DNA of 64,000 nt from Escherichia phage nepoznato. Below are positions 4,720-37,521 of this stretch, piece by piece. The position numbers were made by a program, and so were the translations under genes. Below the pieces are notes generated by a model that ran no database searches, was not told the DNA's origin, and saw only the letters and a program-made list of their open reading frames with translations. The stretch lies in the sequence record NC_052658.1, one strand, 5' to 3'. Every line of letters begins with the position of its first letter. Position 1 is the first letter of the stretch.

Positions 4720-5325
4720 ATGCAACATAGTGTAGTAGTCAACATGCCGAATAGTGGGGATAAATCTTTTGGTGTCCCTGCTAAAAAAGTGTGGAAAGCC
4801 CATTTTCATCTTACTTTATCTAACGTTAGTTCTGAAGAGTTGATGAAAGCAGCTAAGATTATTGGTGCCAAATGCACAACAATTGATTTACATCGGGATA
4901 CAAAGTCTCAACGTGATCGTATGTTAACAAAGTATCAAAGCGATCTCGACACTACTTTAATGTTGCAGTGTGTAGAAAAACTTGAGAATGCAGGTTTCAA
5001 TGTTGTTCGTTACAAACTGGAACGAATGTTTAAACATGTTGCCTGTGTTCTTTTCATGGATCTAAGTAAAGAAAATTATGGAGAAGTTCACATTAAGACT
5101 TCAGCAAGTGATCCCGAAGTAGAAACAAACTTCTTCCGTATTTCTTCTAATGCTGAAGAAATTGATTACCGATTTTATAATGCTCGCTTATATTCCGCAG
5201 AAGATAAGTTGCGTTTCAATGAAGCGTATGATATGCTCTTGAACAGTGGGATACAGATAAAAGGCTACCACATAGAACAAGTGGTAGTGGACAGTAATCT
5301 TAACTTAGACGCATGGTGGGCTTAA
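4720..5325 (+). CDS. Hypothetical protein; weak 2H-phosphoesterase-like HxTx motif
   Basis: GAGGAG SD; one HLTL (H-x-T-x) motif near residue 30; a second canonical motif is not clear (VHIKTS). Confidence 0.45.
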   Translation: MQHSVVVNMPNSGDKSFGVPAKKVWKAHFHLTLSNVSSEELMKAAKIIGAKCTTIDLHRDTKSQRDRMLTKYQSDLDTTLMLQCVEKLENAGFNVVRYKLERMFKHVACVLFMDLSKENYGEVHIKTSASDPEVETNFFRISSNAEEIDYRFYNARLYSAEDKLRFNEAYDMLLNSGIQIKGYHIEQVVVDSNLNLDAWWA

Positions 5326-5326
5326 T

Positions 5327-5983
5327 ATGACTATTAAACATATCTCTTTTGATGTATGGAACACACTGATCACAGCAAACTCCAATTACGCAGACATGCG
5401 AGCCTGGACTATCGCAAAATATGGAGATATTACGGAAGTGGAAGCAAGAGCAGCTTATAAGAAGATCAAAAAGGAACTGGATAATGCAGCACTTCAAGGC
5501 AAAGCCGAGTGTGCAGCATACGCCTGGGAAAGACTTGGTTCTGAACTTGGGATAACACCTTGGAAGTCTGCAAAGCTTCGTTTCGAGTGTGAACAGTGGT
5601 TCCTTAAGTTTCCACCACACGTAGCCGTGGATCTGCCGATGTACTTGCTGTATCTTTCGGGACGTTATGATTTGAGTATTAAGAGCAATACCAACTTTAT
5701 ATCAGGGGATATCCTGCGTCGTGCTTGTAAGTTTGATAGTTGGAATTGTTTTGAGTTCACCCATTTCTCGGATGAAGCTTTACTTTGTAAACCAGATCCG
5801 CGATTCTTTGCTCGCACGCTCACATATTCTCCGATCCCTCTGTTAGGGCACGAAGTATTGCACGTAGGCGATAGTGAAGAATATGATGGAAAATGTGTTG
5901 ACTTAGGATTTAACTTCTGTCATATTAAGAACCCTAACGACTTACTAGAGAAACTTAAAAGAGGAGAAATTGTAAATGCGTAA
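5327..5983 (+). CDS. HAD-superfamily hydrolase-like protein
   Basis: N-terminal ISFDVWNTLI (haloacid-dehalogenase-type DxYGT-like motif I variant) and C-terminal HVGDSEEYDG (motif IV-like). Confidence 0.5.
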   Translation: MTIKHISFDVWNTLITANSNYADMRAWTIAKYGDITEVEARAAYKKIKKELDNAALQGKAECAAYAWERLGSELGITPWKSAKLRFECEQWFLKFPPHVAVDLPMYLLYLSGRYDLSIKSNTNFISGDILRRACKFDSWNCFEFTHFSDEALLCKPDPRFFARTLTYSPIPLLGHEVLHVGDSEEYDGKCVDLGFNFCHIKNPNDLLEKLKRGEIVNA

Positions 5984-6803
5984 TCAAACTCAAATTTTTG
6001 CAAATAAATTTGATGACCTGGAAACTGCTACTTTTGATATCCAAGATTATTCAAAATTGAAATTTGGTAGTAACCAAGCCGCGCGTCGTATGGGTAAAGA
6101 ATTGGCACTTCAGTTTTTTGCTCAAGTGGCAATGAAACATATTGGGGAACAATTTGTTATCATTCCTTCTCCTTACAACCATGTGCATAATGCTGCAACA
6201 ATGATGACAGATCATTTTATTAATTACTTTAACATGTTGCAATCACAATATAATCAAGGTCGTTCAGCAGAACTGGACATTATTCATCGTAAAGTTAGCT
6301 ATATCAACGATTATGGTTTCTTGGATAAAGCTAGTCGTAAGAAACTTATTGATGGGGATACATTCTACTGCAACAAAGAATTCTGGGGTGATAAGAAGCT
6401 TGTATTCATTGATGATGTAAATATCACTGGAACGCATGAAGACAAACTGATTGAGATTCTTGATGAAAATCAAGTTAAAAATGATGTTTACTTCCTGTAT
6501 TTTGCAAAATATGAAGGTAATCAAGCAGATACCGAAGCTAAACTGAATTTTAACTACATTAATACACCAGAAGCGTTTGTTAAAATGATTAATGAAGAAC
6601 GTGATGCACAGTGTCTTGTTCGTCCTATTAAATATCTTATGGGCCAAAATCATGAAGACTTCAAAATCATTCTTAGCCAATTGCCACACTACTATGTAGA
6701 GCAACTTTTCTTCGGCTGTTTAGCTGAAGGCTACAATCGAATTGCAAAGTATACTGAAAACTTTGAATTCTTGGATCGTTACACAAAACAACACATTCTG
6801 TAA
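5976..6803 (+). CDS. Phosphoribosyltransferase (PRTase)-like protein
   Basis: KKLVFIDDVNITGT resembles the type I PRTase PRPP-binding loop; GAGGAG SD; start overlaps the end of the HAD-like gene. Confidence 0.5.
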   Translation: MRNQTQIFANKFDDLETATFDIQDYSKLKFGSNQAARRMGKELALQFFAQVAMKHIGEQFVIIPSPYNHVHNAATMMTDHFINYFNMLQSQYNQGRSAELDIIHRKVSYINDYGFLDKASRKKLIDGDTFYCNKEFWGDKKLVFIDDVNITGTHEDKLIEILDENQVKNDVYFLYFAKYEGNQADTEAKLNFNYINTPEAFVKMINEERDAQCLVRPIKYLMGQNHEDFKIILSQLPHYYVEQLFFGCLAEGYNRIAKYTENFEFLDRYTKQHIL

Positions 6804-6817
6804 TAAGGAGCTAAAAA

Positions 6818-7291
6818 ATGCTTAAAATGAAAACAGGTAATCTTATTGATGCCGCTAAAGCAGGTGAAGTAACTGTTATTGCTCATTGTTGCAATTGTAT
6901 GTGTAATATGGGGGCAGGAATTGCTCCGCAAATTAAACGAGCATTCCCTTATGCATATGCGGCGGATTTAGACACAATGGCTGGTGATCAGAGTAAGTTA
7001 GGTTCTTTTAGTTTAGGGGTGCCAGACGAACAATCAGACCCTTTGGTATATAATCTATACGGGCAATACCGTTACGGATATAATGCTAAAGGTCGTCAGT
7101 TGGACTATGATGCCCTATACGATGCACTAATAGCTATGGCTAATGATTTGCTTCTCCGTGACCAAAAATGTAAGATCGGTTTACCTATGATTGGAGCGGG
7201 ACATGCCGGAGGTAATTGGGCTATCATCCAAGTGATGATTGAAGAAACTTTAGTAAAAACAGGTCACGATGTGACTATTTATAAACTTTAA
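6818..7291 (+). CDS. Macro-domain (ADP-ribose-binding/processing) protein, divergent
   Basis: VTVIAHCCNCMCNMGAGIAPQI aligns with the macro VxNAAN..LxGGGGVDGAI region; LPMIGAGHAGGNWAII aligns with the second macro motif; 157 aa. Confidence 0.55.
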   Translation: MLKMKTGNLIDAAKAGEVTVIAHCCNCMCNMGAGIAPQIKRAFPYAYAADLDTMAGDQSKLGSFSLGVPDEQSDPLVYNLYGQYRYGYNAKGRQLDYDALYDALIAMANDLLLRDQKCKIGLPMIGAGHAGGNWAIIQVMIEETLVKTGHDVTIYKL

Positions 7292-7303
7292 GAGGAGATT
7301 AGT

Positions 7304-7525
7304 ATGGGTGTTTTTGCAGGTATTGTTGCAGTGGTAAGCTTTTTTGTTATTGCTTTTATGCTTAGTTTGATTCCAGCTTGGTTACTGTTGCTGGCTTACA
7401 ACTATGTTGCTGAAGTTATGGGTCATGCAGATATCACTGTCCCAGTAACCTTCTGGACCGTGGTTTGTGTTTCGTTTATTCTGGCTGTATTACGAGGAAT
7501 CTTTTCCTCTCATTCAACAAAATAA
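7304..7525 (+). CDS. Small membrane protein (two predicted TM helices)
   Basis: AGAGGAG SD; hydrophobic segments FAGIVAVVSFFVIAFMLSLIPAWLLLLAY and TVVCVSFILAVL. Confidence 0.5.
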   Translation: MGVFAGIVAVVSFFVIAFMLSLIPAWLLLLAYNYVAEVMGHADITVPVTFWTVVCVSFILAVLRGIFSSHSTK

Positions 7526-7528
7526 GTG

Positions 7529-7557
7529 TTGACATAGTTCTTAAAAAGAGTAAGATA
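7529..7557 (+). promoter_or_regulatory. Sigma70-like promoter upstream of terC
   Basis: TTGACA at 7529-7534, 16-17 nt spacer, TAAGAT -10-like hexamer; followed by a leader hairpin GCGGGGA/TCCCCGC (7569-7587) before the SD. Confidence 0.45.
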
Positions 7558-7604
7558 TATCACATGAAGCGGGGAATAGTTCCCCGCAAAGAGAGGAGAA
7601 AAGA

Positions 7605-8579
7605 ATGCAACTCGGTTTCCCAATTATTGATGTAGTTGTTTTAGTTGGTATTTTGGCATTGTCTATTGGTATCGATTTCTTTGGTCATAAAGAGAATAAA
7701 GAAATTGGAATTAAATCTGCTTTGCTTTGGTCTATTTTTTGGATTGCTTTAGCTTTAGGATATTACGCATTCATTTGGGTAGAACATGGTAAAGAGTTTG
7801 CCGCGCTTTTCCTAAGTGGCTATGTGTTGGAAAAGAGTCTTTCTGTAGATAACCTGATGGTGTTCATGGCAATTTTTGCAAGCTTTGGAATTAAGAGCAC
7901 ACATCTCCAACATAAGATTTTACTTTGGGGGATTGCAGGAGCCATTGTCTTCCGAGGTATTTTTGTTGCAGCAGGCACCGCTTTGTTTAACCTTCATTGG
8001 TCGGTACAAGTGTTGTTCGGTTTGATTGTAGCTTGGTCTGCCGTAGCTATCATCAAAGGTGGTGACGAAGAAGAGGATATTGATTACTCTAAGCATTGGG
8101 CTGTTCGTTTAGTAGGTAAAGTTCTGCCTGTGCACAATGCACTGGATGGTGAAAAGTTCATTACCATTAAGAATGGTATTAAATATGCAACTCCTGCTCT
8201 TCTTTGTGTGTTTGTTATTGAGCTTACAGATATTGTCTTCTCTTTTGATTCAGTTCCGGCTGTGATCGGTGTGACACAAGAACCTCTGCTGGTTTATTCT
8301 GCAATGCTGATGGCTGTTCTTGGTTTACGTGCGCTTTTCTTTGTGTTAAGTGTAGCTGTGAAATATCTGGTTCACTTAGAGAAAGCTGTTGCTGTGGTTC
8401 TGGTGTTTGTTGGTGTTAAACTTATGTATCACCCGTTCGGTGAAACACTTCATGCCAAGTGGTCATTCCTCCCGCATGATATTTCCCCTAACGTAAGTCT
8501 GATGATTGTTCTAGGCACATTAGCTCTTGGTGTTATTGCAAGCTTTATCTTCCCTGAAAAAGAAGAAGCTGCTGTTTAA
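7605..8579 (+). CDS. terC: TerC-family integral membrane protein
   Basis: Multi-pass membrane protein with the TerC signature EKSLSVDNLMVF and a second SFDSVPAV segment; 324 aa. Confidence 0.8.
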   Translation: MQLGFPIIDVVVLVGILALSIGIDFFGHKENKEIGIKSALLWSIFWIALALGYYAFIWVEHGKEFAALFLSGYVLEKSLSVDNLMVFMAIFASFGIKSTHLQHKILLWGIAGAIVFRGIFVAAGTALFNLHWSVQVLFGLIVAWSAVAIIKGGDEEEDIDYSKHWAVRLVGKVLPVHNALDGEKFITIKNGIKYATPALLCVFVIELTDIVFSFDSVPAVIGVTQEPLLVYSAMLMAVLGLRALFFVLSVAVKYLVHLEKAVAVVLVFVGVKLMYHPFGETLHAKWSFLPHDISPNVSLMIVLGTLALGVIASFIFPEKEEAAV

Positions 8580-8585
8580 TAGATG

Positions 8586-8610
8586 AGCCTCCTTCGGGAG
8601 GCTATTTTAT
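8586..8610 (+). terminator. Rho-independent terminator after terC
   Basis: Hairpin AGCCTCC-TTCG-GGAGGCT followed by ATTTTAT. Confidence 0.65.
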
Positions 8611-8621
8611 AGGAGAGACTT

Positions 8622-8972
8622 ATGAATAATTTTGATGAAATTCAAGAACTTGTTTGGGATTTATCTGGTGATGTGGATTACATTTCAGATTATCTTTCAA
8701 AAGTTTACCCTGGGGTAAGCGTTATGATTGTGACCAAAGATCCGATTAATTTGCCTCCTAATGTGGTAGCTTGTTGTGGAAGTGGTTCAGGAGAAGTAGA
8801 GCCTGTATCTCGTTGGGAATTAACTAAAGCTGTTTCAAAACGAAACGGTGAAGTTTTGAATATTGATATTGAACAAATATGGACTTCTCCAGCAGCCAAA
8901 TGGAATGATCCGAATGGTTGGGATTTGTTCTTCTGGGATAATGAAACTGATGATGAGGTATTTTTAAAATGA
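8622..8972 (+). CDS. Hypothetical protein
   Basis: ATG with SD; 116 aa; no motif. Confidence 0.45.
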   Translation: MNNFDEIQELVWDLSGDVDYISDYLSKVYPGVSVMIVTKDPINLPPNVVACCGSGSGEVEPVSRWELTKAVSKRNGEVLNIDIEQIWTSPAAKWNDPNGWDLFFWDNETDDEVFLK

Positions 8973-9214
8973 AATACTTGTTGGTTGTGTTTGAAAATAT
9001 CTGTTTTGCAATAGGGTTGTTTGTTGTAATTTTTGTATTGACAAGCGTAATCAACGGCAGTAAAGTGAGTTTATACCGAGATGGAGAGCAAATTTATTGC
9101 TTCTCTGGAGATTTCAAACACAGATGTATTAATAGTCAAAATGAGGAAAGCAAATATGAAAAAACTAGCCCTGATTTTAATTGGTTGTATCTTTTTAACA
9201 GCTTGCGAGGATGA
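8969..9214 (+). CDS. Hypothetical small membrane protein (uncertain; overlaps the lipoprotein start)
   Basis: N-terminal hydrophobic segment LLVVFENICFAIGLFVVIFVLTSV; overlaps the next gene. Confidence 0.3.
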   Translation: MKYLLVVFENICFAIGLFVVIFVLTSVINGSKVSLYRDGEQIYCFSGDFKHRCINSQNEESKYEKTSPDFNWLYLFNSLRG

Positions 9215-9593
9215 AACAAATCCTGCACAATACCAACAACCTCCTCAACAATACGCCCAACAAGGATCTGATGGAGATACAACTATTATCAACAATGGTG
9301 GCGGTTCTAGTAGTAGCGGTGTTGGTGAGTTTGCTACAGGTATGTTGTTAGGGCATATGATGAGCGGTGGTAGTAATCGTAGTGGCGGGGATTATAACGA
9401 TAACAGAACAATTATTAATAAACATTATAACACACCTAAACCGAAGACTAATTTTTATGGTAAGCCTAAACAAGAGACAAAAACTTATGAAAAGCCGAGA
9501 CAAACTTTTAAAACAAATAGTAGCTATACAACTCGTAAATCTTACAATAGCCCTTTAAGTAAAAAGAGTTCATCTCGTAGCAAGCGACGTTAA
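9156..9593 (+). CDS. Lipoprotein (signal peptide plus lipobox), Q/G/S-rich with a lysine-rich C-terminus
   Basis: MKKLALILIGCIFLTAC lipobox; GAGGA SD at 9143-9147; alternative ATG at 9141; low-complexity mature region. Confidence 0.55.
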   Translation: MKKLALILIGCIFLTACEDETNPAQYQQPPQQYAQQGSDGDTTIINNGGGSSSSGVGEFATGMLLGHMMSGGSNRSGGDYNDNRTIINKHYNTPKPKTNFYGKPKQETKTYEKPRQTFKTNSSYTTRKSYNSPLSKKSSSRSKRR

Positions 9594-9608
9594 TAAGGAG
9601 AAAAAACA

Positions 9609-10052
9609 ATGACAATTTCTATCCGTACTTCCATTACAGGTGTTAAAAGTTTGCCTAATGCTTTGCAAATTACACGCGCTTTGAGGGATACGTTCTCCGC
9701 TGTGGATGAGCATAAGATGCTTGATAATCTCTCAAATTGGCCTTATTTTCATTATTTTAAAAATGAAGACGACGAGTTTATAGATGCTGTTTCTTATGGT
9801 TATGATTTCGGTAAGGAGGTTTCTCCTGAAGAATTTGTAGCTATGGTGTTCCCAAACGGTTTGCCTACTCGCAGTAAACGTAAAAAAGGACCAAAAAACA
9901 AGAAACGTGCTACTAACAAAGCTACCATTTTCTTTACTGATGGCACACAATATACGATTAAAGATTTTGAAGAGGTATCTTATACAGCAGGTGGGAATCT
10001 TTCTTTCTACACCATCAAAAAAACAAAACCCTACGTTCAGCCATGTTTCTAA
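9609..10052 (+). CDS. Hypothetical protein
   Basis: ATG with GGAG SD; 147 aa; basic patch KRKKGPKNKKR. Confidence 0.45.
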   Translation: MTISIRTSITGVKSLPNALQITRALRDTFSAVDEHKMLDNLSNWPYFHYFKNEDDEFIDAVSYGYDFGKEVSPEEFVAMVFPNGLPTRSKRKKGPKNKKRATNKATIFFTDGTQYTIKDFEEVSYTAGGNLSFYTIKKTKPYVQPCF

Positions 10053-10206
10053 CATGATTGAAATGTTAGTAGAAGATATTGAAAGCGTGGCTGTGTTAGG
10101 TATGCATAAAAGCTTTTTAATTACAAATATTTCAGATTTCAGTGCACGTTTATCTGGCCCTGATTTTGAAGCCACGACCACGCATTTCACTTTTAAGGTG
10201 TAAGTT

Positions 10207-10797
10207 ATGCATACCGAGAGAGACTTGCAACTCTTGTGGTGGGAAGTGATGCAGGAAATAAAAGAAGATTTTCCTGTTTACTACAACATGTTACGTGAAG
10301 CAGGATATAAAGCTTGCGTTAGAAACAAAGTGAATAACTCTTTTGGTTGGTGCAATTACCGAGATAAGATTGTTGTTGTAAATTGGCACTTGCATAAGAA
10401 CTCCACAAGAGATATGATCGTGGATACAATGAAGCACGAAATTGCTCACGCTATTGATGGTTGTATGGGTAAGTTTAGTAGGCATGGTGCTCATTGGCAA
10501 AAACTGGCAGCAGAATTAGGGGCTAATCCTAAAGCCACTTCCAAAGAGCCGTTGAACCACGAATATAAATATGTTCTTGTTCTGGTAGATAGGTTTGCGA
10601 CAAGATGTGTTAGAGGTTATAATCGTAAACCTAATCGCATGTACCCAGGTAAGCAACCTAACATGTGGTTGAAATCAGATAAAGAAGGAACTGAAGGAAA
10701 ATTATGGTTGTATAAATGGGATGATTGGGTTAAAGTAGCTAAAGAGTACGGTGTTTCACCATATATAAGAGATGCAGAAGAGGAGAATGAAGAATGA
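10207..10797 (+). CDS. SprT-like zinc metalloprotease domain protein
   Basis: HEIAHAID (HExxH) in a SprT-like context, followed by ...HGAHW. Confidence 0.5.
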   Translation: MHTERDLQLLWWEVMQEIKEDFPVYYNMLREAGYKACVRNKVNNSFGWCNYRDKIVVVNWHLHKNSTRDMIVDTMKHEIAHAIDGCMGKFSRHGAHWQKLAAELGANPKATSKEPLNHEYKYVLVLVDRFATRCVRGYNRKPNRMYPGKQPNMWLKSDKEGTEGKLWLYKWDDWVKVAKEYGVSPYIRDAEEENEE

Positions 10798-11906
10798 CAA
10801 GTCCATTTTTAAAAGCAGCTACTGGTGGTCAGAAGAAGTCTGAAATGAGTGTATTCGCTGCAACAACAGATGCAAGTAAATCTGTATTCGCTCCAAGTGT
10901 GTTAGATGCCAGTCCTGTTTATGCACCAGCAGCACCGCAAGAAGTTCCAGTTTTGCCTGCTATGACCCGACAAGAGATCGAAGAGATTGGGGCAGAGGCA
11001 GGAACAACCTTGCGTTCCTTGAATGCCGAGGTATTAAAACATCAACGTAGTAATCAAGGCGATCAGATGAGTGAACGACTCACAGCTTTGATTAAACAGG
11101 CAAAACAACTTGATCCAAATTCTATTAAACAAAGCAAGGGTATTACTAAACTCATTAAAAAAGTTATGGGTATGAAAGAAGACCTGTTCGGGGAGTTTGA
11201 TAATGTTAATAACCGTATTGAAGAGTTGGTAAAGAACCTTCAAATGGATATTCGCAAAGAAGAAGATTCCTTGGTATATCTTGAAAAGCTACATCAAGCT
11301 ATTGGACAATATGCTGCAAGTTTGAACCGAGATATGCAGCTTCTAACAGCAACCTATGAAAAAGAAGAACAAGCTTTGGCTGCTCTTCCAGAAGATGCAG
11401 TAGAACAGCGACAAGTGATCCGAGATACTTTGGATCTTCTGGAGATTCGTATTGCAGATTTAAAAGCATTGCGCCTACTGTGTGTCCAAATGGGACCGCG
11501 TGTACAAGGTATGCAAAAAGTTTCTGCAAGCTTAATGCGATCTGCGCGTAACATAGTAAATAATGTTATTCCTGCTTACTCTGCTAACTTCTCAATGTAT
11601 ATCGAGAGTTTACGTCAAATGAAAGCAGCAGAGACGCAGAATAACGTTCTTGATGAATTTAACCTGGCAATTAAACTGGGTAGCGATCTTGCCACACAGA
11701 ATCAGATCGAAGCAGCAGCACTGGCTAACCGTCAAGTGTTGGATATTGAAACTCTGCGTCACGATCAGGAAAACTTGGTTAAGATGTTGGAAGAAACTAA
11801 CCGCATCAATACGGAAGCCCGTGCTGCTCGTGTTGATTATATTAATGAAGTTCAATCTCTGGAAGACGGGATGGTAGCTGCTGTGAAACGAGGGCTTGGT
11901 AAATGA
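10794..11906 (+). CDS. Coiled-coil protein, tentatively TelA-like (toxic anion resistance family)
   Basis: 370 aa, largely helical/coiled-coil; size and context (terC/terD neighbourhood) fit TelA; no diagnostic motif verified. Confidence 0.3.
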   Translation: MTSPFLKAATGGQKKSEMSVFAATTDASKSVFAPSVLDASPVYAPAAPQEVPVLPAMTRQEIEEIGAEAGTTLRSLNAEVLKHQRSNQGDQMSERLTALIKQAKQLDPNSIKQSKGITKLIKKVMGMKEDLFGEFDNVNNRIEELVKNLQMDIRKEEDSLVYLEKLHQAIGQYAASLNRDMQLLTATYEKEEQALAALPEDAVEQRQVIRDTLDLLEIRIADLKALRLLCVQMGPRVQGMQKVSASLMRSARNIVNNVIPAYSANFSMYIESLRQMKAAETQNNVLDEFNLAIKLGSDLATQNQIEAAALANRQVLDIETLRHDQENLVKMLEETNRINTEARAARVDYINEVQSLEDGMVAAVKRGLGK

Positions 11907-12100
11907 GAATCCGTATCTATATAATTGATGAAGACATTGGTGTCCGTTATGATGACGAAAAACGATTCGCACCGATGGGAGGCATATATCCCCCAAGTGT
12001 TCTAGCAGTTTGTCGTGATTGTTATATTTATGAAGGTTGTCGTAACTTCCGTAAATTCCAACTACTTGCAGATATTGACTTCAACGAGGAGGAGGAGTAA
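11903..12100 (+). CDS. Hypothetical small protein
   Basis: Start overlaps the upstream stop (translational coupling); 65 aa; acidic C-terminus. Confidence 0.4.
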   Translation: MRIRIYIIDEDIGVRYDDEKRFAPMGGIYPPSVLAVCRDCYIYEGCRNFRKFQLLADIDFNEEEE

Positions 12101-12271
12101 TGAAAATATTACGAGTGAATATTGAAACTGCTTGGTGTGGATGCAATGAGGTTGTGGATATCGAAATTGAAGATGATATGTCTCAAGAGGATATAGAAGA
12201 TCTTGCACACGAAACCTTTCAGGACTATTGTAATTACGGGTTTCATATTTTAGAGGAGGAAGAAGATGTTT
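12100..12271 (+). CDS. Hypothetical small acidic protein (57 aa, below the ORF-track cutoff)
   Basis: ATG at 12100 preceded by GGAGGAG; translation MKILRVNIETAWCGCNEVVDIEIEDD...; stop at 12269-12271. Confidence 0.4.
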
Positions 12272-12469
12272 AACTACGATAACGATCCTAATATTATCCA
12301 GTTAACCCGACAAGAACTGATCACAATCATTGAAGATGCTTTTATTGATGGTTGGAATACACAAGATAATGATTGGGGTGGACCCGAAGCTTTTCTGGAA
12401 CATCATAAAACGTATGGAGACTTTTGTGAAACCACTGTAGCTCTTGATAATCTGAAGGAGGGTTTGTAA
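12266..12469 (+). CDS. Hypothetical small protein
   Basis: GAGGAGGAAG SD; 67 aa. Confidence 0.4.
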   Translation: MFNYDNDPNIIQLTRQELITIIEDAFIDGWNTQDNDWGGPEAFLEHHKTYGDFCETTVALDNLKEGL

Positions 12470-13029
12470 TGGGTTGTTTTAGTTTTTTGTGTAAGGAATC
12501 TGGAAAAGCTGCCCTTTCTACTTCTTTCGACGGATCACCTTGTTATCTCTTTCTTTTGAAGGACGGTGTTGTTATTGAAGAGATGTATGGCAACTATGAT
12601 AGTTATGGTTGTGTTTTCTCTGGAAAGGAGGATGAAAATGGCGTTCGTGAACGGTTCGAATGGGCTATGGATTGGGGTAAGGTTTGTGATTTAATGCATT
12701 CCTCAAATCCAAGGGACGGTATTGCTATGGTGCTGGAAGAGTACTTTACAGGTGAAATCCCTACAGAACAATCTGACGGAGATCCTAATCAAGGTTGGGG
12801 TGATGGTGAAGAAGATCCAGATTGTTTTTTCAGCACAGAAAAGAATAAGTTTAAACGTGTTGACAACCCTTATCACAAAGTGCATAATACTCTCATTGAA
12901 ACAGAAGATGACAAGATGGAAATTGAAGAAGATCCTCTTGTAACACTTCCTATAAGTGAGTTACAAAAGATCACTAAGGAAGCTTACGATTTGGGCTTCA
13001 AAATTGGTAGAGGAGGTATGCGTGTTTAG
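12469..13029 (+). CDS. Hypothetical acidic protein
   Basis: Start overlaps the upstream stop; 186 aa; very acidic C-terminal half. Confidence 0.45.
   Translation: MGCFSFLCKESGKAALSTSFDGSPCYLFLLKDGVVIEEMYGNYDSYGCVFSGKEDENGVRERFEWAMDWGKVCDLMHSSNPRDGIAMVLEEYFTGEIPTEQSDGDPNQGWGDGEEDPDCFFSTEKNKFKRVDNPYHKVHNTLIETEDDKMEIEEDPLVTLPISELQKITKEAYDLGFKIGRGGMRV
12860..12888 (+). promoter_or_regulatory. Sigma70-like promoter (inside the 12469 gene) ahead of the first Ter cassette
   Basis: TTGACA (12860-12865), 17 nt spacer, CATAAT (12883-12888). Confidence 0.45.
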
Positions 13030-13300
13030 ATTCAATATTCAAGAAGAAAAGTGTCAGGATTTACCTATTGCTTTCGAAGATCTTGGCATAGGGGCCACAT
13101 TCATGTATTATGATGCCTATGAAGACGCAGGGTTGGATACATACCGTAACTTGGTGTTCATTAAAAATTCCACAAACAGTGCGATCTGTATTAATGGATC
13201 ACTAGCACAACGAGGCTATACTCATTGCATCCCGCCAGATACAAATATGGTGGAAGTAGATTTAGAAGTTACCAACATTACACTTAAGAAGGAGAAATAA
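13022..13300 (+). CDS. Small protein, paralog A of a duplicated pair (cassette 1)
   Basis: GTG start with AGGAGG at 13011-13016; about 35-40% identical by eye to the 14322 protein (shared FxIxxxK, DLxxGxTFxY, GLD, VxLxVTxITLK). Confidence 0.5.
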   Translation: MFRFNIQEEKCQDLPIAFEDLGIGATFMYYDAYEDAGLDTYRNLVFIKNSTNSAICINGSLAQRGYTHCIPPDTNMVEVDLEVTNITLKKEK

Positions 13301-13301
13301 T

Positions 13302-14096
13302 ATGTCCGAGAAAATCAGCCTGAAAAAACGTCAAGAAAACCTTGCTTTCTCTCTGAAAAAGAATAAGAACCTGAATGAAGGTAAGATTGTTCTTCGTGTA
13401 GCATGTGCTCTAGATATTTCTGGTAGTATGCATGGTCTATATTCTAGTGGGGTAGTGAGTGATTTTGTAGGTAAACTGCTTCCTTTTGGTATGCTGTTCG
13501 ACGATAATCAACAAATTGATATGTGGGCCTTCAATACGAGTTCCCAAGAGCTTACTCCAGCAACAGCAGATGTTTACGATGACTATGTTGGTAAATGTAT
13601 GCGTAATGTTCGTATCGGAGGTGGAACAAATTACGCCCCTGTAATGGCGGATATCTACGATGAGTATTTTGGCACTGTTACTAAATATATTACCACTAAA
13701 CAAGTGGTACAAGAGGAGGCTCCAAAGAAAGGCTTCTTTAATCGTCTGCTTGGTAAAACTGAAACAGTGTCTGTAGAGCGTGAAAAAGTTGTAGCTGTAT
13801 CTGAACCAGGTGCTGACGTTACCCCTGGTGTTGTATTCTTCCAGACGGATGGTGAGAATGGTGATCCTAGTGCTGTTCGTCGTCTTATCGAAGAGAATAA
13901 GAATAAACCTATTTATTGGTTCATGGTTGGCGTTGGTAATGAGAAGTTCGGCTTCCTGAAAGAACTGGCAAATGCTTATGATAATGTTGGTTTTATTGGC
14001 ATTAAAGATTTAGACTTGACAGATTCAGAGCTTTATGACAAACTCTTATCTGAAGAGTTCGGAGAGTGGGTTGTTAAAGTAGGTGCTAAAAAATGA
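13302..14096 (+). CDS. vWA-domain protein with a TerD-type N-terminal ISLKK peptide (TerF/TerY-like)
   Basis: N-terminus MSEKISLKK...FSLKK, then vWA MIDAS motif LRVACALDISGSM (DxSxS). Confidence 0.55.
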   Translation: MSEKISLKKRQENLAFSLKKNKNLNEGKIVLRVACALDISGSMHGLYSSGVVSDFVGKLLPFGMLFDDNQQIDMWAFNTSSQELTPATADVYDDYVGKCMRNVRIGGGTNYAPVMADIYDEYFGTVTKYITTKQVVQEEAPKKGFFNRLLGKTETVSVEREKVVAVSEPGADVTPGVVFFQTDGENGDPSAVRRLIEENKNKPIYWFMVGVGNEKFGFLKELANAYDNVGFIGIKDLDLTDSELYDKLLSEEFGEWVVKVGAKK

Positions 14097-14341
14097 TCGA
14101 CGAGCTTGCCTCTCAAGTCATAGAAAATTATTGGCGCGAGAGAGAAGCTTTCATTATGCGCAGTCTCAAAGAGTATTTCATTGGGACTGTGCGAATGGAA
14201 GATATTGTAAGTAGAGTAGAGATTCATGTATGGCCCGATTATGAAGAATGGGTTGACAAAGAAAATGAAAATGCTATAATTCTTCGTATATACAAACCGG
14301 AGATAACATTAGGAGGAAGAAGTGTTAAACTTCGAAATTGA
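14093..14341 (+). CDS. Hypothetical small protein
   Basis: Start overlaps the upstream stop; 82 aa; contains the next cassette's promoter. Confidence 0.35.
   Translation: MIDELASQVIENYWREREAFIMRSLKEYFIGTVRMEDIVSRVEIHVWPDYEEWVDKENENAIILRIYKPEITLGGRSVKLRN
14253..14280 (+). promoter_or_regulatory. Near-consensus sigma70 promoter ahead of the second Ter cassette
   Basis: TTGACA (14253-14258), 16 nt spacer, TATAAT (14275-14280). Confidence 0.55.
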
Positions 14342-14591
14342 TGAGCAAAAAGTAAATAAACGATGCCTTACCATTAAAGATTTGGATGTAGGAGATACTT
14401 TCGTCTATGAAAATGCATTTGACGAAAATGGTTTAGACCTTAGTGAAATCATTGTTTATTTAAAAGTAGATGATGGGGAAAATGATTGTTCTGCTGTAGA
14501 ACTAAACCATCATGCACAATTAGTATCAATCCAAAACACATCTAAGCTTTTGGAAGTAGAATTGACTGTAACTGGTATTACACTTAAATAA
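14322..14591 (+). CDS. Small protein, paralog B of the duplicated pair (cassette 2)
   Basis: GTG start with AGGAGG at 14311-14316; paralogous to the 13022 protein. Confidence 0.5.
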   Translation: MLNFEIDEQKVNKRCLTIKDLDVGDTFVYENAFDENGLDLSEIIVYLKVDDGENDCSAVELNHHAQLVSIQNTSKLLEVELTVTGITLK

Positions 14592-14606
14592 TAGAGGAGA
14601 CAAAAG

Positions 14607-15209
14607 ATGACTGATAAAATTTCCCTGAAAAAAGGCTCTAGCGAAAAAATTTCCCTGAAGAAAGTTGCTCCGGCTCTGAAAGAACTGCGCCTGGAATTCT
14701 CTTGGAAATCTGATTCTAAACTGGATCTGGATGTAAGTGCACTGGTTTGTCGTCACAATGCCGCTGGCAATCCTGAAATGCTGTCTGCACGTCACCTGGT
14801 TTGCTATGCTAACAAGTTTGATCCTGAACGTTCTACCTTCGCTGGTGACGATGTTCGTGATGGAACTGGCAGCATGGAGCAGATTGATATTACTCTGGCT
14901 AAAATCTCTCCTGATGCACAAGAGATTGCCTTTGTTCTGACCATTGATGATGATACAGGTCTGAAACGTTTTGGTCATGCTTCTGAAGGTATGCTTAAAA
15001 TCTTTGACTCCGAGCGCAATGTGGAAATTCTGGATTTTGACTTCCTGGCTCCTGAAGTAGCTGGCAACACAATCTGCCACGTGGCTTCCTTGGTTCGTGA
15101 AGATGGGGAATGGAAGCTGAAAGCATATGGTGTAGGTAAAGCTGGTCTGGATATTTGTGATGTGGTCATGGCCTTCGGTGGTAAAAAAGAATGGTATGAA
15201 TGTCCATAA
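14607..15209 (+). CDS. terD: TerD-domain protein
   Basis: N-terminal double repeat KISLKKG...KISLKK, then TerD-family motifs DLDVSAL, GDDVRDGTGS, EWKLKAYGVGKAG; codon usage strongly biased to CTG/CGT/GGT. Confidence 0.8.
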   Translation: MTDKISLKKGSSEKISLKKVAPALKELRLEFSWKSDSKLDLDVSALVCRHNAAGNPEMLSARHLVCYANKFDPERSTFAGDDVRDGTGSMEQIDITLAKISPDAQEIAFVLTIDDDTGLKRFGHASEGMLKIFDSERNVEILDFDFLAPEVAGNTICHVASLVREDGEWKLKAYGVGKAGLDICDVVMAFGGKKEWYECP

Positions 15210-15227
15210 TAATTAACAAATGATTTT

Positions 15228-15247
15228 GAGGGGGAGAAATCCCCCTC
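15228..15247 (+). terminator. Hairpin after terD (weak terminator)
   Basis: GAGGGGG/CCCCCTC stem; no strong T-tract. Confidence 0.35.
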
Positions 15248-15276
15248 TTGCAATAAAGCCTCTATCGTGTTATACT
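15248..15276 (+). promoter_or_regulatory. Sigma70-like promoter for the SleB-like gene
   Basis: TTGCAA (15248-15253), 17 nt spacer, TATACT (15271-15276); AAAGGAGG SD before the TTG start. Confidence 0.45.
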
Positions 15277-15308
15277 AGAAATTCGTTAACTTAAAAAGGA
15301 GGCAAAAT

Positions 15309-15830
15309 TTGCTGATAAAAAACTTTGTAACAGTTGCGTTACTATCCTTAACTGCTTTTACATTTACACCTGTTGTGGCGAAAGCCGAAGCTGCAAACGT
15401 AAAAACCGCTAAAGTAGTTCACAAATGTACAAAGCAATATAATGATAAAATTCTATTAGCTTGTGCAATTTACGCAGAAGGTCGCGGTCTGGGTAAAAAA
15501 GGAATGAATGCCGTTGGGAATGTGGTAATCAACAGAAGAAATGATACCTACTTCCCTAACACAGTCAGAGGAGTCTTGTTCCAGAAAGGACAATTCTCAT
15601 ATGCGAAAACTTTTAACGTAACAGAGAAAGATAAGTGGCAGGAAGCAAAAGCAATAGCGGAGCGTTTACTTTATCTAGAGAAACATTTTCCTGAATTGCG
15701 GTCTGTTTTAGATGTTACTAAAGGTGCTCTATACTTCAAGAAACGGAATATAAAGACACACTGGGAACGTGATATGCGTCTTGTTTATCGAGATAAAGTG
15801 CATGGTTTCTATCTACCAAAGGGGAGTTAA
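15309..15830 (+). CDS. Secreted cell-wall hydrolase, SleB-like
   Basis: Signal-peptide-like N-terminus (LLSLTAFTFTPVVAKA), then CAIYAEGRG...GMNAVGNVVINRR...TVRGVLFQKGQFSY typical of SleB/Hydrolase_2; TTG start. Confidence 0.6.
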   Translation: MLIKNFVTVALLSLTAFTFTPVVAKAEAANVKTAKVVHKCTKQYNDKILLACAIYAEGRGLGKKGMNAVGNVVINRRNDTYFPNTVRGVLFQKGQFSYAKTFNVTEKDKWQEAKAIAERLLYLEKHFPELRSVLDVTKGALYFKKRNIKTHWERDMRLVYRDKVHGFYLPKGS

Positions 15831-15831
15831 A

Positions 15832-16116
15832 ATGCAAGAAGATAATACTGTTGTTGTAGCAAGTTACCTGGTTGTCGGTCTTACCGAAGAGGATGTATAC
15901 TACACCCGTAAGCATTTAGAAGCATACGCTACTTTGTTTATGGAAGATGAAAAGGATGTAGATAAATATAGCATTGATATGATCAACGACAGTATTTATC
16001 CTTGTATGGTTCTTAAAGTAGATGCTGTGTTGTGGGAGCGTTTTGCAAGGACTCATGATGCTGTAGAATGCTCCGCAGTAATGTCTCAAAACAACATTTT
16101 AGGGGAGATTCATTGA
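15832..16116 (+). CDS. Hypothetical protein
   Basis: ATG at 15832 with GGGGAG SD; the listed ORF begins earlier, inside the preceding gene. Confidence 0.4.
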   Translation: MQEDNTVVVASYLVVGLTEEDVYYTRKHLEAYATLFMEDEKDVDKYSIDMINDSIYPCMVLKVDAVLWERFARTHDAVECSAVMSQNNILGEIH

Positions 16117-16346
16117 TGGGAGAAGTCATTGAAGTCAATTTTCGCACTAAACAGAAAGTGCAAAAATATGTCGTTATTAAAAACATTTGCGTTGTCTGCT
16201 TCAATACAGTAATATACGACTCACGACGCGGAGAAAACGAAAATGAACCTTACATTGAAATTTCTAAGAACAAAGGTCAATGTATTTGTAAGAACTGTGC
16301 AGTAGCTATTAAGGAGGTTGTAAATGAAAACGCTTGGGACCAATGA
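16116..16346 (+). CDS. Hypothetical small Zn-ribbon-like protein
   Basis: ATG overlapping the upstream TGA; cysteine pairs CVVCF...CICKNC. Confidence 0.4.
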   Translation: MGEVIEVNFRTKQKVQKYVVIKNICVVCFNTVIYDSRRGENENEPYIEISKNKGQCICKNCAVAIKEVVNENAWDQ

Positions 16347-16515
16347 AACTGGCGAAATCTCTCTTCAAGAAGTGACAAACGACAAACTGATTAAGCTACG
16401 AGACGTAGCTCGTGACCATCTTCAAGAATCTTTTAAAGAATACATGGAAGCACGAGATCGTGTCATCCAAATCCAACAGGAAATGATTAAACGTGGGATT
16501 GTAGCCGACAGTTAA
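16324..16515 (+). CDS. Hypothetical small protein
   Basis: AGGAGG SD; 63 aa. Confidence 0.35.
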   Translation: MKTLGTNETGEISLQEVTNDKLIKLRDVARDHLQESFKEYMEARDRVIQIQQEMIKRGIVADS

Positions 16516-16531
16516 TATAACGGAGGGGAGA

Positions 16532-17095
16532 ATGATTTATTATATTACTCCCTATCTGACAGGAAATATCGGCAAGGCTATCAATGAAGCCATTGCCGTT
16601 CTTCCAGATGATAGTTGGGTGTGTTTAAGAGATACCGATACAATGTTCCTCCTACCTGATCAACCATCTATGCTTGAAGAGCTTGTTATGTCAAACCCGC
16701 CTTTTGATGTAATAGGTGCAACTTGTAACAGGTTAGGCAGTGGTTATCAACTTTTCTCTAACCAAATTAACGATGATCCAGATATTCTAAACCATATAGA
16801 ATATGCTAAGATTGCAAGAGAATATCATAAAGTGAGTGTTGAAGAAGTTCCTTTCGGAACACCTCTAGCAGGTTTCTTTTTGCTTTTTAGAAAATCCTTG
16901 TGGAATGAAATTCCTTTCGAAGAAAAATCTATCCAATTCGACTTAATTTTCTCTCGCACTTTACATGAAAAAGGAAAGAGGTTAGGATTGATGCGGGGAA
17001 TGTATCTATTTCACATTTACAGATTAGGTCAAACAAATCCTCAACGGTCTATACATCATTTATTACACTGTCACGATCACAGTAAAACTATTTAG
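16532..17095 (+). CDS. Putative glycosyltransferase (GT-A-like, tentative)
   Basis: GGAGGGGAG SD; Rossmann-like N-terminus and DTD motif; 187 aa. Confidence 0.3.
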   Translation: MIYYITPYLTGNIGKAINEAIAVLPDDSWVCLRDTDTMFLLPDQPSMLEELVMSNPPFDVIGATCNRLGSGYQLFSNQINDDPDILNHIEYAKIAREYHKVSVEEVPFGTPLAGFFLLFRKSLWNEIPFEEKSIQFDLIFSRTLHEKGKRLGLMRGMYLFHIYRLGQTNPQRSIHHLLHCHDHSKTI

Positions 17096-17103
17096 GAGAG
17101 AAA

Positions 17104-17787
17104 ATGGAAAATATTAAAATCGGAGTGGGTGTTATCACTGTAGGTGTCCGTCCACTTAAAGACTACCTTGTAACAGATCCACGTGCAGATTTTCGAGTAT
17201 TCAACGATCCAGACCGTAAAGGTGTAGCTTATGCCAGGAATGAACTTATGCACCAGTTTTATGAAGAAGGTTATGATTATTGGTTTATTTTTGACGACGA
17301 TTGTTACCCAGTCATGGAAGGATGGGAAACATACTTTGTAGATCAAGCTGTTTCTGGAGGATGGGATTTCTTTGGTATGCCGGAGTACTTCAAAGATAAA
17401 GTTGTTGGAAGCAAAGGAGAAGTTATTCTCTGGGAACTTGCAATGTGTCAATTTGCAATGTATTCTCGTGCCGTTGTTGAAAAGATGGGTTATTTCCGCC
17501 CTTACACTCACGGTTATGGTTTTGAAGATGCCGAATGGGGACACCGTTTGAAAGCTGCTGGTTTGAATCATGGTATTCAGGCAACACCTTGTCCACTTCG
17601 TATCATGGCTTATATCCACCCAGACGATGTTTTTGGAAACAATCCTATGCCTTTTGCTAATCTGACAAAAGAAGAGAAAGAAGCTGCTATCGAGATTAAC
17701 TGGGAAGAATATAAAGCATCTTTAGAGGATATTAAAAATGGGAAAATCCGAATTTCCTATGAGGAGGCACTAGCACATGTCAAATAA
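17104..17787 (+). CDS. Glycosyltransferase, GT-A fold (DxD)
   Basis: YDYWFIFDDDCYP (DxD) and GFEDAEWGHR. Confidence 0.45.
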   Translation: MENIKIGVGVITVGVRPLKDYLVTDPRADFRVFNDPDRKGVAYARNELMHQFYEEGYDYWFIFDDDCYPVMEGWETYFVDQAVSGGWDFFGMPEYFKDKVVGSKGEVILWELAMCQFAMYSRAVVEKMGYFRPYTHGYGFEDAEWGHRLKAAGLNHGIQATPCPLRIMAYIHPDDVFGNNPMPFANLTKEEKEAAIEINWEEYKASLEDIKNGKIRISYEEALAHVK

Positions 17788-18724
17788 AAAATGGTCTAAA
17801 CTAAAAATTGATGCAAAACCTCACAGCGGTTGTGACTATCATCGTATTGTTATGCCATTTAACAACAATAATATTCAACCTAAGAAAGATGTTGTTGTGT
17901 TTAACCGTATCCATTCTAAAGGTGCAGAATACGTTTTATCTTTGAAACGTCAAGGTGTTAAGATTGTTGTAGATTTAGATGATTTCTACCAACTTAATCC
18001 AGAACATTATTTAGCAAGTCTATACGAGTCAAACACTCATGCTATTGTAGCTATGGTTAAGCTTGCTGATGTGGTTATTGTGACTACGGAATATTTGGCA
18101 TATAAGATCCGTCACTTAAATAGGAATGTTGTTGTGATCCGAAATGCGCTTCCTTTTGATAGCGGACAATTTACTTTGTCAAATGACCGTTCATCCGGTA
18201 CCCCTATTGTATGGGCTGGAGGTGCTAGTCACGAACCCGATTTACGACTAGTCTCTAACACTTTTGATGATGAACTTCTTACTATTGCGGGGTATGAAGC
18301 TTCGCAGAGTATCACAGGGCAAGAGTGGATTAAAATCCGTAGAAATTTACCAAATGCCAAATATAAAGCTGCTGTAAAAGATTTAGATAATTACATGAGT
18401 GTTTACGAAAGTCATGCTATTGCTATAGCTCCTTTGGTAGATAATGATTTTAATAATTGTAAAAGTAATCTCAAAATCCTTGAAGCTGGGGCAAAAGGTA
18501 TTCCGATTGTTTGTTCTAAGGTATTACCTTATTTTAACCCTGTAGATGCTCGCGCTGTTGCTTACGCAGAGAATAAAGCTGAATGGCATTACGAAATTGT
18601 TAAGCTTCTTCGCAATCCGAACTATCGGGAAGATCGCGGCTTGTTCTTAGCGGAACATGTTCGAACACATTATAATCTGGCAGATGCAAACGAATTGCGA
18701 CGCCAGGTTATTGAAAGCTTGTAG
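17777..18724 (+). CDS. Glycosyltransferase, GT-B fold (GT1-like), paralog 1
   Basis: C-terminal NNCKSNLKILEAGAKGIPIVCS resembles the GT1 E-x7-E/EAxAxG motif; N-terminus HSGCDYHRIV. Confidence 0.5.
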   Translation: MSNKKWSKLKIDAKPHSGCDYHRIVMPFNNNNIQPKKDVVVFNRIHSKGAEYVLSLKRQGVKIVVDLDDFYQLNPEHYLASLYESNTHAIVAMVKLADVVIVTTEYLAYKIRHLNRNVVVIRNALPFDSGQFTLSNDRSSGTPIVWAGGASHEPDLRLVSNTFDDELLTIAGYEASQSITGQEWIKIRRNLPNAKYKAAVKDLDNYMSVYESHAIAIAPLVDNDFNNCKSNLKILEAGAKGIPIVCSKVLPYFNPVDARAVAYAENKAEWHYEIVKLLRNPNYREDRGLFLAEHVRTHYNLADANELRRQVIESL

Positions 18725-18731
18725 GTGAAGT

Positions 18732-19676
18732 ATGGGACAAATAATTCTTGACAATCGTAACGGAATCAATTATAGTGTCTGCGATTTCCATAGGGTAGTG
18801 CTGCCTTACTCAAGGCAGTTCTCTTCACAACCTAAACACAACGTTTTCGTTTTTAACGGAGTGCCAACAAAAGGTAAAGAGGGCTTTTTAGCCCTTAAAA
18901 ACCTAGGCTTTAAAATGGTTATGGATTTGGATGACTCTTTAGTTATTCCAAAAGGACACATGTTAGAAGGTATTTTTGAATCAGGTATTCGTGAACATTT
19001 AAAATGGTTTTTAGAGCACAGTGATCTTGTTACAACTACGACACCTGTCTTGCAAGTTGAACTTTCACAATATAATGATAATGTGCACATAATCCCTAAT
19101 GGACTTCCTTACGATGAAGGTCAATTTGTGTTGACCCGTGATCGCTACTCCAAAACTCCATTAGTCTGGGCTGGAAGTGAAACACATAAACAAGATTTGG
19201 CTATCTTACCCGATTTTGGTAAAGATCTTACAATATGTGGTTTTCGTAGGGATTCTGAAGTTTTAAGTAGTCGTGAATGGTCTTTAATCAGAGAAAATGT
19301 AGCACCAACTTGTGTTTATGAAGGTGTAAGACCATATGCCAACTACATGGAATCTTACGATGGTCATCAAATCAGTCTTGCACCATTGATCGATAACGTG
19401 TTTAATAATGCAAAAAGCAATCTTAAAATTCTTGAGGCAGGTGCTAAGGGTTTACCTTTAATCTGCTCTCCTCGTGAGAATTATCATACACAAGAGTTTA
19501 AAGATTTGTTATTCTTTGCTGAAACACCTTCCGAGTGGAAAGATATTACGGAATACTTATTAAGTGCTCCCGATGTTTGCATGGAGAAAGGATTAGCATT
19601 AGCTAAGTATGTCAGGACTCATTATCACATTGATGTGTTGAATGAGCGTCGTAGACTTTTATTTGAGGAGCTATAA
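18732..19676 (+). CDS. Glycosyltransferase, GT-B fold, paralog 2
   Basis: Collinear with the previous protein (CDFHRVVLP..., NNAKSNLKILEAGAKGLPLICS); tandem duplicate. Confidence 0.5.
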   Translation: MGQIILDNRNGINYSVCDFHRVVLPYSRQFSSQPKHNVFVFNGVPTKGKEGFLALKNLGFKMVMDLDDSLVIPKGHMLEGIFESGIREHLKWFLEHSDLVTTTTPVLQVELSQYNDNVHIIPNGLPYDEGQFVLTRDRYSKTPLVWAGSETHKQDLAILPDFGKDLTICGFRRDSEVLSSREWSLIRENVAPTCVYEGVRPYANYMESYDGHQISLAPLIDNVFNNAKSNLKILEAGAKGLPLICSPRENYHTQEFKDLLFFAETPSEWKDITEYLLSAPDVCMEKGLALAKYVRTHYHIDVLNERRRLLFEEL

Positions 19677-19954
19677 TGATTAACACTTTTGATTTTGAAT
19701 ACACCACTCGTAACGGGAAAGCCTTGGTCGTGGAGGTGGATTACTATTATGAAGAACCTAATCCACTTTCTCGTGAAAGCGATTGGGATTACCACGGAGG
19801 GCTTTTAATTGACGGTATTCGTTTTTATGAAGGATCTACAGAAGTTTTTGAAAAAGATTTAAATGTAACTGTAGCAGAAATTGCTTTCCAATTTAGAAAG
19901 CACATGGAAGAACTAGAAGCAGAATATATGATGGAGACTAACGAACCATTTTAA
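19676..19954 (+). CDS. Hypothetical protein
   Basis: ATG overlapping the upstream stop; 92 aa. Confidence 0.4.
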   Translation: MINTFDFEYTTRNGKALVVEVDYYYEEPNPLSRESDWDYHGGLLIDGIRFYEGSTEVFEKDLNVTVAEIAFQFRKHMEELEAEYMMETNEPF

Positions 19955-37518: not shown

Positions 37519-37521
37519 TAA

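Follow-up and report, generated by a model that had tools for sequence, protein, structure and literature searches.

Wall hydrolases of the SleB/CwlJ type are known from Bacillus, and related proteins have been described in several groups of phages. A gene of this type was analysed in Escherichia phage nepoznato (sequence record NC_052658.1), where it is located at 15309..15830 on the plus strand of a stretch of 64,000 nucleotides, referred to below as the window. The Bacillus SleB and CwlJ enzymes (structures 4F55 and 4FET) have the same catalytic-domain fold as the phage protein and the same Y-x-E-[SA]-R-G motif around the glutamate, and Bacillus SleB also has a signal peptide. Substrate recognition would have to differ from that of the Bacillus enzymes, because the host is without a muramic-delta-lactam cortex. 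Holin-independent delivery to the wall compartment is likewise seen for Lys44 of phage fOg44 and for the signal-arrest-release (SAR) endolysins P1 Lyz and R21. These are the sole endolysins of their phages, are encoded within lysis cassettes and represent different enzyme families, whereas the window protein is a second enzyme, encoded outside a cassette and with an N-terminus that is not SAR-like.

The window belongs to the genus Phapecoctavirus, the phAPEC8-like E. coli myoviruses of the subfamily Stephanstirmvirinae with genomes of approximately 150 kilobases (kb), and bases 13000-19000 match more than 60 complete phAPEC8-like genomes at approximately 98.5% identity. The phAPEC8 gene is the same gene, and phi92 gp170 is 74% identical with the same neighbours, hairpin, promoter and TTG start; nothing substantive differs in either phage, and the records say SleB or 'endolysin'. 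Among records carrying other host names (MG065650.1, MG065672.1 and OP562383.1), the SleB-like gene in those of Campylobacter phage B15 and Acinetobacter phage ABPW7 is approximately 99% identical to that of E. coli Phapecoctavirus, and Campylobacter phage A141 matches exactly as the E. coli rV5-like (Vequintavirus) records do. These host labels are probably wrong.

The SleB-like proteins of the Vequintavirinae (CB7_83, CR3_087, PVP-SE1 gp243, 4MG_270 and those of rV5-like phages) are of equal length and 34-38% identical to the window protein. They resemble it in the signal peptide, the cysteine pair HxC...LAC, an often non-ATG start, a preceding hairpin and the presence of a second endolysin in the genome. 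In Seunavirus and Certrevirus a small holin-like gene with two transmembrane (TM) domains follows, whereas three apparently soluble small open reading frames (ORFs) follow in the window, and in Vequintavirus the SleB-like gene abuts rIIA/rIIB, whereas the window gene is preceded by Ter genes. The follower in 4MG (locus L012, 3030-3203) encodes a protein of 57 residues with two TM segments and a basic C-terminus, and is located 5 nucleotides after the TTG-start SleB-like gene. It was assigned to PHROG 24442 and resembles a class II holin or pinholin, and no counterpart was found beside the window gene. For the Certrevirus homologue CB7_83 a signal peptide has been reported, as well as toxicity upon expression in E. 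coli and a 65-residue holin candidate with two TM domains overlapping the 3' end of the gene (PMC7344957).

T5.083 ('sleB') of T5 and T5-like phages is an exported single-domain Hydrolase_2 protein, approximately 37% identical over the core and encoded away from the holin and M15 endolysin genes. It differs in having an ATG start, other cysteine positions and a shorter length of 149 residues. PAK_P3 gp151 (Nankokuvirus), from a phage of a different host, is a Hydrolase_2 protein of 33% identity, encoded among DNA-metabolism genes and transcribed early; it differs by a probable N-terminal membrane segment lacking an obvious signal peptidase site, judged by analogy with the homologue of the Pakpunavirus SRT6. 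Both the window gene and its unusual features have been recorded before, in papers and databases, and signal-peptide-bearing SleB-like genes far from any holin have already been reported in related phages. BME3 and PVP-SE1 carry a lysozyme and, in the replication module, a SleB homologue that has no membrane-protein gene in its vicinity; their candidate class II holins are encoded elsewhere (PMC12210895). The SleB-like gene of T5-like phages is far from the pair of holin and M15 endolysin (PMC11180984), and two lytic proteins of Phapecoctavirus have been published (PMC10793346).

The window gene is read here, with modest confidence, as encoding an accessory wall hydrolase that is exported through Sec into the periplasm in small amounts, acts without a holin and is not the main endolysin. 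The precursor would be exported across the inner membrane via Sec and cut by signal peptidase I after Ala26, giving a soluble periplasmic enzyme of approximately 147 residues, probably disulfide-bonded. The Ter operon would end upstream at a hairpin, after which a sigma70 promoter with an extended -10 would start the hydrolase's own transcription unit, with translation from a weak TTG keeping amounts low. Expressed from the replication/Ter/glycosyltransferase arm and not from the late arm, the small periplasmic amounts would act on the sacculus without a holin, nicking or remodelling it from an early or middle stage, and this nicking would prepare or speed the final lysis by a T4-type lysozyme, or raise wall turnover. 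Canonical lysis would be left to the cytoplasmic T4 e-type lysozyme and the Rz/Rz1 spanins, encoded elsewhere. A preliminary description of this locus had proposed either an exported endolysin needing no canonical holin or an early peptidoglycan-remodelling enzyme, and the latter appears to fit the evidence best.

The coding sequence of the hydrolase precursor specifies 173 residues, from the TTG start to a TAA stop at 15828-15830. Only the TTG at 15309 gives a protein with a hydrophobic N-terminus as well as the catalytic glutamate, the next in-frame methionine being residue 66. Residues 62-168 matched the Pfam family Hydrolase_2 (PF07486) with 64.5 bits, compared to a gathering cutoff of 27 (E=1.5e-17), and the protein matched PHROG 938 (E=8e-19). 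It is 98.8% identical to the phAPEC8 'putative cell wall hydrolase SleB', and other database records of the gene read 'endolysin' or 'cell wall hydrolase'. Bacillus SleB was the sole match in a phmmer search against the PDB, and the catalytic YGE of SleB was aligned with YAE in the window protein (Glu57, codon 15477-15479). E57, N75, R76 and Q95 were invariant in 118 homologues and H165, F167 and Y168 nearly invariant; the features that define Hydrolase_2, a catalytic glutamate in a Y-x-E-[SA]-R-G helix together with NR, QF and HxFY motifs, were all found. An AlphaFold model calculated from the 18 close relatives only was unusable, with a mean predicted local distance difference test (pLDDT) score of 50.7, and the alignment of 118 sequences was used instead. 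This gave a pLDDT of 87.5, and above 90 over most of residues 40-173. The only significant Foldseek matches to the model in the PDB were SleB 4F55 and 4FET (probability 1.0, template modelling score 0.69-0.75, normalised to target length). Family matches, fold and motifs confirmed the SleB/Hydrolase_2 domain of the preliminary description.

Homology to SleB makes it probable that the protein is a lytic transglycosylase and that Glu57 serves as its catalytic acid. In architecture it appears to be CwlJ-like and not a SleB orthologue, because a Pfam scan of the protein found no second domain and no N-terminal peptidoglycan-binding domain, the first strand of the model begins only about 11 residues after the predicted cut, and no YpeB-like gene, for which no dedicated search was made, stood out among the adjacent ORFs.

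A Sec-type signal peptide was predicted at residues 1-26 (15309..15386, plus strand) by a rule-based reading, with a signal peptidase I cut at AKA-EA after Ala26. The mature enzyme would then comprise residues 27-173 (15387..15827, plus strand). The N-terminus, MLIKNFVTVALLSLTAFTFTPVVAKA followed by EA, has the tripartite layout of Sec signals: a basic n-region with Lys4, an h-region of 15 residues that closes with Pro21, and an A-x-A site, which places small residues at -3 and -1. In each of the 18 relatives, the most distant of them 58% identical, visual inspection found a possible site, in which position -1 is small and position -3 small or aliphatic. The c-region was the most variable segment among these relatives, and a -1/-3 pattern that is kept despite such turnover is what would be expected of a signal peptidase I site. 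The amino acid composition, with 0% glycine, is like that of Sec signal peptides and unlike the glycine-rich SAR domains, in a comparison with reference peptides of both kinds. A crude rule found signal-like N-termini in 121 of the 150 nearest cluster representatives, and equivalent layouts are present in the homologues of T5 (SSQA-SH), an rV5-like phage (VVA-AP) and 4MG (4MG_270, VLA-KD). On this n/h/c layout and the kept A-x-A-type site, the predicted signal peptide agrees with what had been claimed. A paper on near-identical phages states that no signal peptides were found (PMC10698182).

At least two cysteines were present in every one of the 118 homologues, and Cys40 and Cys52 (codons 15426-15428 and 15462-15464) were invariant in the subfamily. 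The conserved pair fits a periplasmic disulfide, and Cys40-Cys52 is probably such a bridge, judging from the residues conserved. A lipoprotein was ruled out, since no cysteine precedes residue 40. The n- and h-regions were the most conserved part of the protein, with 88% identity compared to 67% for the mature part. Synonymous divergence in codons 1-45 (15309-15445) was 0.26-0.35, compared to 0.55 in the remainder of the gene, so the conservation lies partly at the nucleotide level and need not reflect protein function. No credible Rfam match was found for an RNA element behind this conserved 5' end, and the folding of 15283-15450 was ordinary (z = -0.07).

A GC-rich hairpin, GAGGGGGA-GAAA-TCCCCCTC, was read from the sequence at 15228..15247 (plus strand), where it immediately follows the TerD gene and adjoins the -35 element. 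Its predicted folding free energy is -16.9 kcal/mol, and it is without a proper T-tract in this genome; owing to the missing T-run an automated terminator scan did not list it. Equivalent hairpins with the GAAA loop and changed stem bases were found in four relatives (-14 to -18 kcal/mol), and the ASO2A record annotates a rho-independent terminator at this position. The hairpin probably ends the upstream transcription unit. It is followed by a sigma70-type promoter at 15248..15276 (plus strand), with the -35 sequence TTGCAA at 15248-15253, a spacer of 17 nucleotides, TG at 15268-15269 and the -10 sequence TATACT at 15271-15276; transcription would be expected to start near 15283. The promoter agrees with the consensus at 9 of 12 positions and has the extended -10 TG. 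Promoter-like matches as such were not above chance, 28 being found in 7 kb compared to 20.3 +/- 4.5 in shuffled sequences. The intergenic region was judged from an alignment of the window with the loci of phi92 and three metagenomic relatives, where the protein is 58-75% identical. CTTGC[A/C]A at -35, the 17-nucleotide spacer, TG-n-TAnAAT, GGAGGC and the TTG start were kept in all five loci while the flanks diverged. It is this conservation, and not the match score, that bears out the sigma70-like promoter previously proposed, and the TTG start, invariant in the five loci, stands as well. The extended promoter motif occurs in a single copy in the window, and a repeated phage promoter cassette was rejected since no further copies were found there.

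The Shine-Dalgarno sequence GGAGG (15298..15302, plus strand) is located 6 nucleotides before the start codon, and GGAGGC is invariant in the five loci. In a near-identical genome, 5 of the 83 genes annotated over a stretch of 48 kb start with TTG, and non-ATG starts are found in homologues too, GTG in an rV5-like phage and TTG in 4MG. The SleB-like gene has a strong GC hairpin with a T-run immediately ahead of its ribosome-binding site in an rV5-like phage (L007, 2440-2500), in 4MG (L012, 2455-2495) and in a Pakpunavirus (L011, 1784-1824). As the hairpin leaves no room for a promoter before the ribosome-binding site in these three phages, expression there may need read-through. The conserved hairpin, promoter and TTG start would suggest selection for an insulated gene of low output.

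The window ends within the capsid gene, and by tblastn no T4-type lysozyme, spanin, terminase, portal or scaffold gene was present in it. The remaining lysis machinery was read from the full annotation of EF1-1, a near-identical genome. EF1-1 encodes a T4 e-type lysozyme of 166 residues (Pfam Phage_lysozyme, E=5e-11) with no TM-like segment, 50% identical to T4 e over the aligned region. Its residues align with Glu11, Asp20 and Thr26, the catalytic positions of T4 lysozyme. An overlapping pair of i-spanin and o-spanin genes (Rz/Rz1) is located directly before the large terminase gene, approximately 52 kb from the SleB-like gene. The lysozyme and the SleB-like gene were found in essentially equal numbers of records, 63 at 95% identity or more together with 67-68 at 60-90%. 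With a T4 e-type lysozyme and spanins in near-identical genomes, the proposal of an exported endolysin that dispenses with a canonical system was not upheld. The preliminary description had named a separate canonical pair of endolysin and holin as evidence against it; of this pair the endolysin is present, along with spanins, and a holin was not identified. No mutant data on the requirement of the hydrolase for host lysis were found in the literature searched.

The hydrolase gene is not part of a holin-endolysin-spanin cassette and has neither a holin nor a spanin as neighbour. Its neighbours are TerD and small ORFs free of membrane features, in agreement with the claimed lack of an adjacent holin. 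Three small membrane ORFs elsewhere in the window (7304-7525, 37522-37857 and 41583-41846) had been put forward as holin or anti-holin partners. All three exist, and none matched a holin family in Pfam or PHROGs. ORFs 7304-7525 and 41583-41846 showed only trivial similarity, in the TM segment, to the holin-like 4MG_271. ORF 7304-7525 is located between a Macro-domain gene and TerC, and a holin role is less likely for it because it lies inside the Ter stress module. The protein of 111 residues encoded at 37522-37857 (minus strand) has a weak N-terminal TM segment and a coiled coil, and is labelled 'lipoprotein' in PHROGs although it is without cysteine. Its gene directly follows the tail-fibre assembly gene 37868-38407, the relative position of the T4 holin gene t after gene 38, and this is a positional hint only. 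Endolysin and spanins have been identified in rV5-like phages, and no recognised holin (PMC6658697).

No transcriptome for this subfamily was found in the literature, and a literature search for T5.083 expression yielded nothing relevant. The homologue gp151 of Pseudomonas phage PAK_P3 had an equal relative transcript level at 3.5 and 13 min (log2 fold change 0.62, not significant), while most structural genes of PAK_P3 rise 4-13 log2 units over the same interval, and the authors proposed that gp151 degrades wall material during infection (PMC4933390). The Pakpunavirus SRT6 homologue closely follows a DNA ligase gene, the next gene after it encoding an HD-phosphohydrolase, and the SleB-like gene of T5 is located beside annotated promoters. 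Placement beside rIIA/rIIB in rV5-like phages, beside DNA-metabolism genes in SRT6 and beside promoters in T5 fits a gene that is not late.

Several points weigh against an accessory enzyme of low dosage. Bacillus SleB needs muramic-delta-lactam, which is absent from E. coli, and muralytic activity on E. coli peptidoglycan is assumed. For export, cleavage, enzymatic activity, timing, low dosage and physiological role the reading goes beyond the gene, domain, fold, conserved residues, regulatory signals, context and other lysis genes that were observed. The sigma70 match is weak here (TATACT, 9 of 12 positions) and says nothing of timing, and the PAK_P3 timing is that of a 33% identical homologue in a different host, with an N-terminal membrane segment and not a cleavable signal. 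The holin-like gene with two TM domains that follows the SleB-like gene in Seunavirus and Certrevirus points to a true lysis role at least there, and the toxicity of CB7_83 in E. coli suggests that the enzyme may lyse cells alone.

These last two observations keep alive the main rival, in which the protein is a Sec-exported endolysin similar to Lys44, latent in energised cells and freed by a holin or pinholin encoded elsewhere, with the T4-type lysozyme redundant or a backup. This is considered rather unlikely. The predicted cleavable signal peptide is compatible with it, and PHROG 938 and many GenBank records say endolysin. The holin candidate overlapping the 3' end of the toxic CB7_83 (PMC7344957) and the basic-tailed protein of 57 residues with two TM domains after 4MG_270 argue in the same direction, and the lack of an identified holin in rV5-like phages leaves room for unusual lysis control (PMC6658697). 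However, a T4 e homologue with catalytic positions matching those of T4 is conserved across the subfamily, no membrane protein is adjacent to the gene here, in phi92 or in the three metagenomic relatives, and the holin-like 4MG protein had no detectable relative among the small membrane proteins of the window. The gene is also located in the replication arm behind a host-type promoter, PVP-SE1-like and T5-like phages have, in addition to the SleB-like enzyme, endolysins that are characterised or linked to a cassette, and the PAK_P3 homologue is not late. A SAR endolysin, held by an uncleaved N-terminal tether and active on leaving the depolarised membrane, is quite improbable. The high conservation of the n- and h-regions relative to the mature part is unusual for a mere targeting signal, several threonines and serines are present in the segment, and the Pakpunavirus homologue has an N-terminal TM segment that looks uncleavable. 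Against a tether, the segment has no glycine compared to 13-21% in the SAR examples used for comparison, it is followed by a proline and an A-x-A site at the canonical distance, maintained in all 18 relatives, and part of its conservation is at the nucleotide level as described above. The pinholin gene or other membrane protein expected beside a SAR endolysin gene is lacking as well.

A role outside lysis is improbable, though less so than a SAR endolysin. Peptidoglycan turnover would here feed precursor or sugar-nucleotide pools, or the envelope would be changed for a division block or phage exclusion. PAK_P3 infection accumulates cell-wall precursors, for which gp151 was named a candidate, and gp151 transcripts are present at 3.5 min (PMC4933390). 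The window gene is located between the Ter stress module and glycosyltransferase-like genes, and near-identical genomes carry a deoxythymidine diphosphate (dTDP)-sugar pathway. The glycosyltransferase link is however not conserved, being absent in one relative, the metabolomic link in PAK_P3 is a suggestion only, and the holin-like neighbours in Seunavirus and Certrevirus point to lysis. No data separate a role outside lysis from one that assists it. Least probable by far is a virion-associated lysin that pierces the wall at DNA injection. A baseplate activity that degrades the wall is usual in large myoviruses, but a cleavable Sec signal would remove the protein from the cytoplasm, where virions are assembled. 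The gene is moreover in the replication arm, on the strand opposite to the structural genes, and a T4 gp25-like baseplate lysozyme is the reported candidate for this activity in related Vequintavirinae (PMC7344957).

The wider surroundings of the gene were also read. Downstream, three tightly packed or overlapping small ORFs follow on the plus strand (15832-16116, 16116-16346 and 16324-16515; PHROGs 16257, 15360 and 5932), which are probably co-transcribed with the hydrolase gene. A TM scan found no TM-like segment in TerD, ORF 16116-16346 or ORF 16324-16515, and ORF 15832-16116 was judged soluble from a reading of its sequence and the lack of a family match. The same three-ORF arrangement is present in phi92 and the metagenomic relatives. 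The small ORFs are followed on the same strand by glycosyltransferase-like genes, primase/helicase and DNA polymerase. Four glycosyltransferase-like genes (16532-19700, plus strand) are so annotated in near-identical genomes; the two that were scanned had no Pfam match, and the glycosyltransferases are missing in one relative (L009). The dTDP-sugar pathway of near-identical genomes is located next to the T4-type lysozyme (EF1-1, 35468-38746, L001).

Upstream, a Ter-type stress module occupies 4720-15209 (plus strand). It comprises HAD-like (5327-5983), PRTase_3 (5976-6803) and Macro (6818-7291) genes, continues with a protein of 73 residues and two TM domains (7304-7525), TerC (7605-8579) and SprT-like (10207-10797), and ends with TelA (10794-11906), vWA-TerF (13302-14096) and TerD (14607-15209). 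The order TelA, vWA-TerF, TerD and Hydrolase_2 was kept in all relatives examined, with a primase gene downstream. A Ter-type stress module is carried here by a virulent phage, and throughout the subfamily the genes from TelA as far as the hydrolase stand in the same order. At 14253-14280 (plus strand), a perfect match to the sigma70 consensus (TTGACA-16-TATAAT, including TG) was found inside ORF 14093-14341, just upstream of the GTG start of the next gene at 14322.

Exported single-domain hydrolases of the SleB/CwlJ type may form an unrecognised class, a proposal that is put forward tentatively and is more doubtful than the reading of the window gene as an accessory enzyme. Such a class would include the proteins of T5-like, rV5-like, phi92/phAPEC8-like and PAK_P1/PAK_P3-like virulent phages, of which at least the first three groups have a separate endolysin. 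Its members would be early or continuous periplasmic wall remodellers and not agents of terminal lysis, their low dosage coming from a hairpin before the gene and from TTG or GTG starts. Their task would be conditioning of the sacculus, wall turnover or control of cell shape.

For annotation, it is of value that many records apply the name 'endolysin' to this gene in genomes that also encode a T4 e-type lysozyme. The two enzymes need to be told apart in enzybiotic mining and in the engineering of lysis timing, and the signal peptide would need to be removed for cytoplasmic expression. In four unrelated groups of virulent phages, an exported SleB-like enzyme is maintained apart from the lysis genes, which raises the question of the role of a wall hydrolase that would be sent to the periplasm long before lysis, and of how the cell stays intact.

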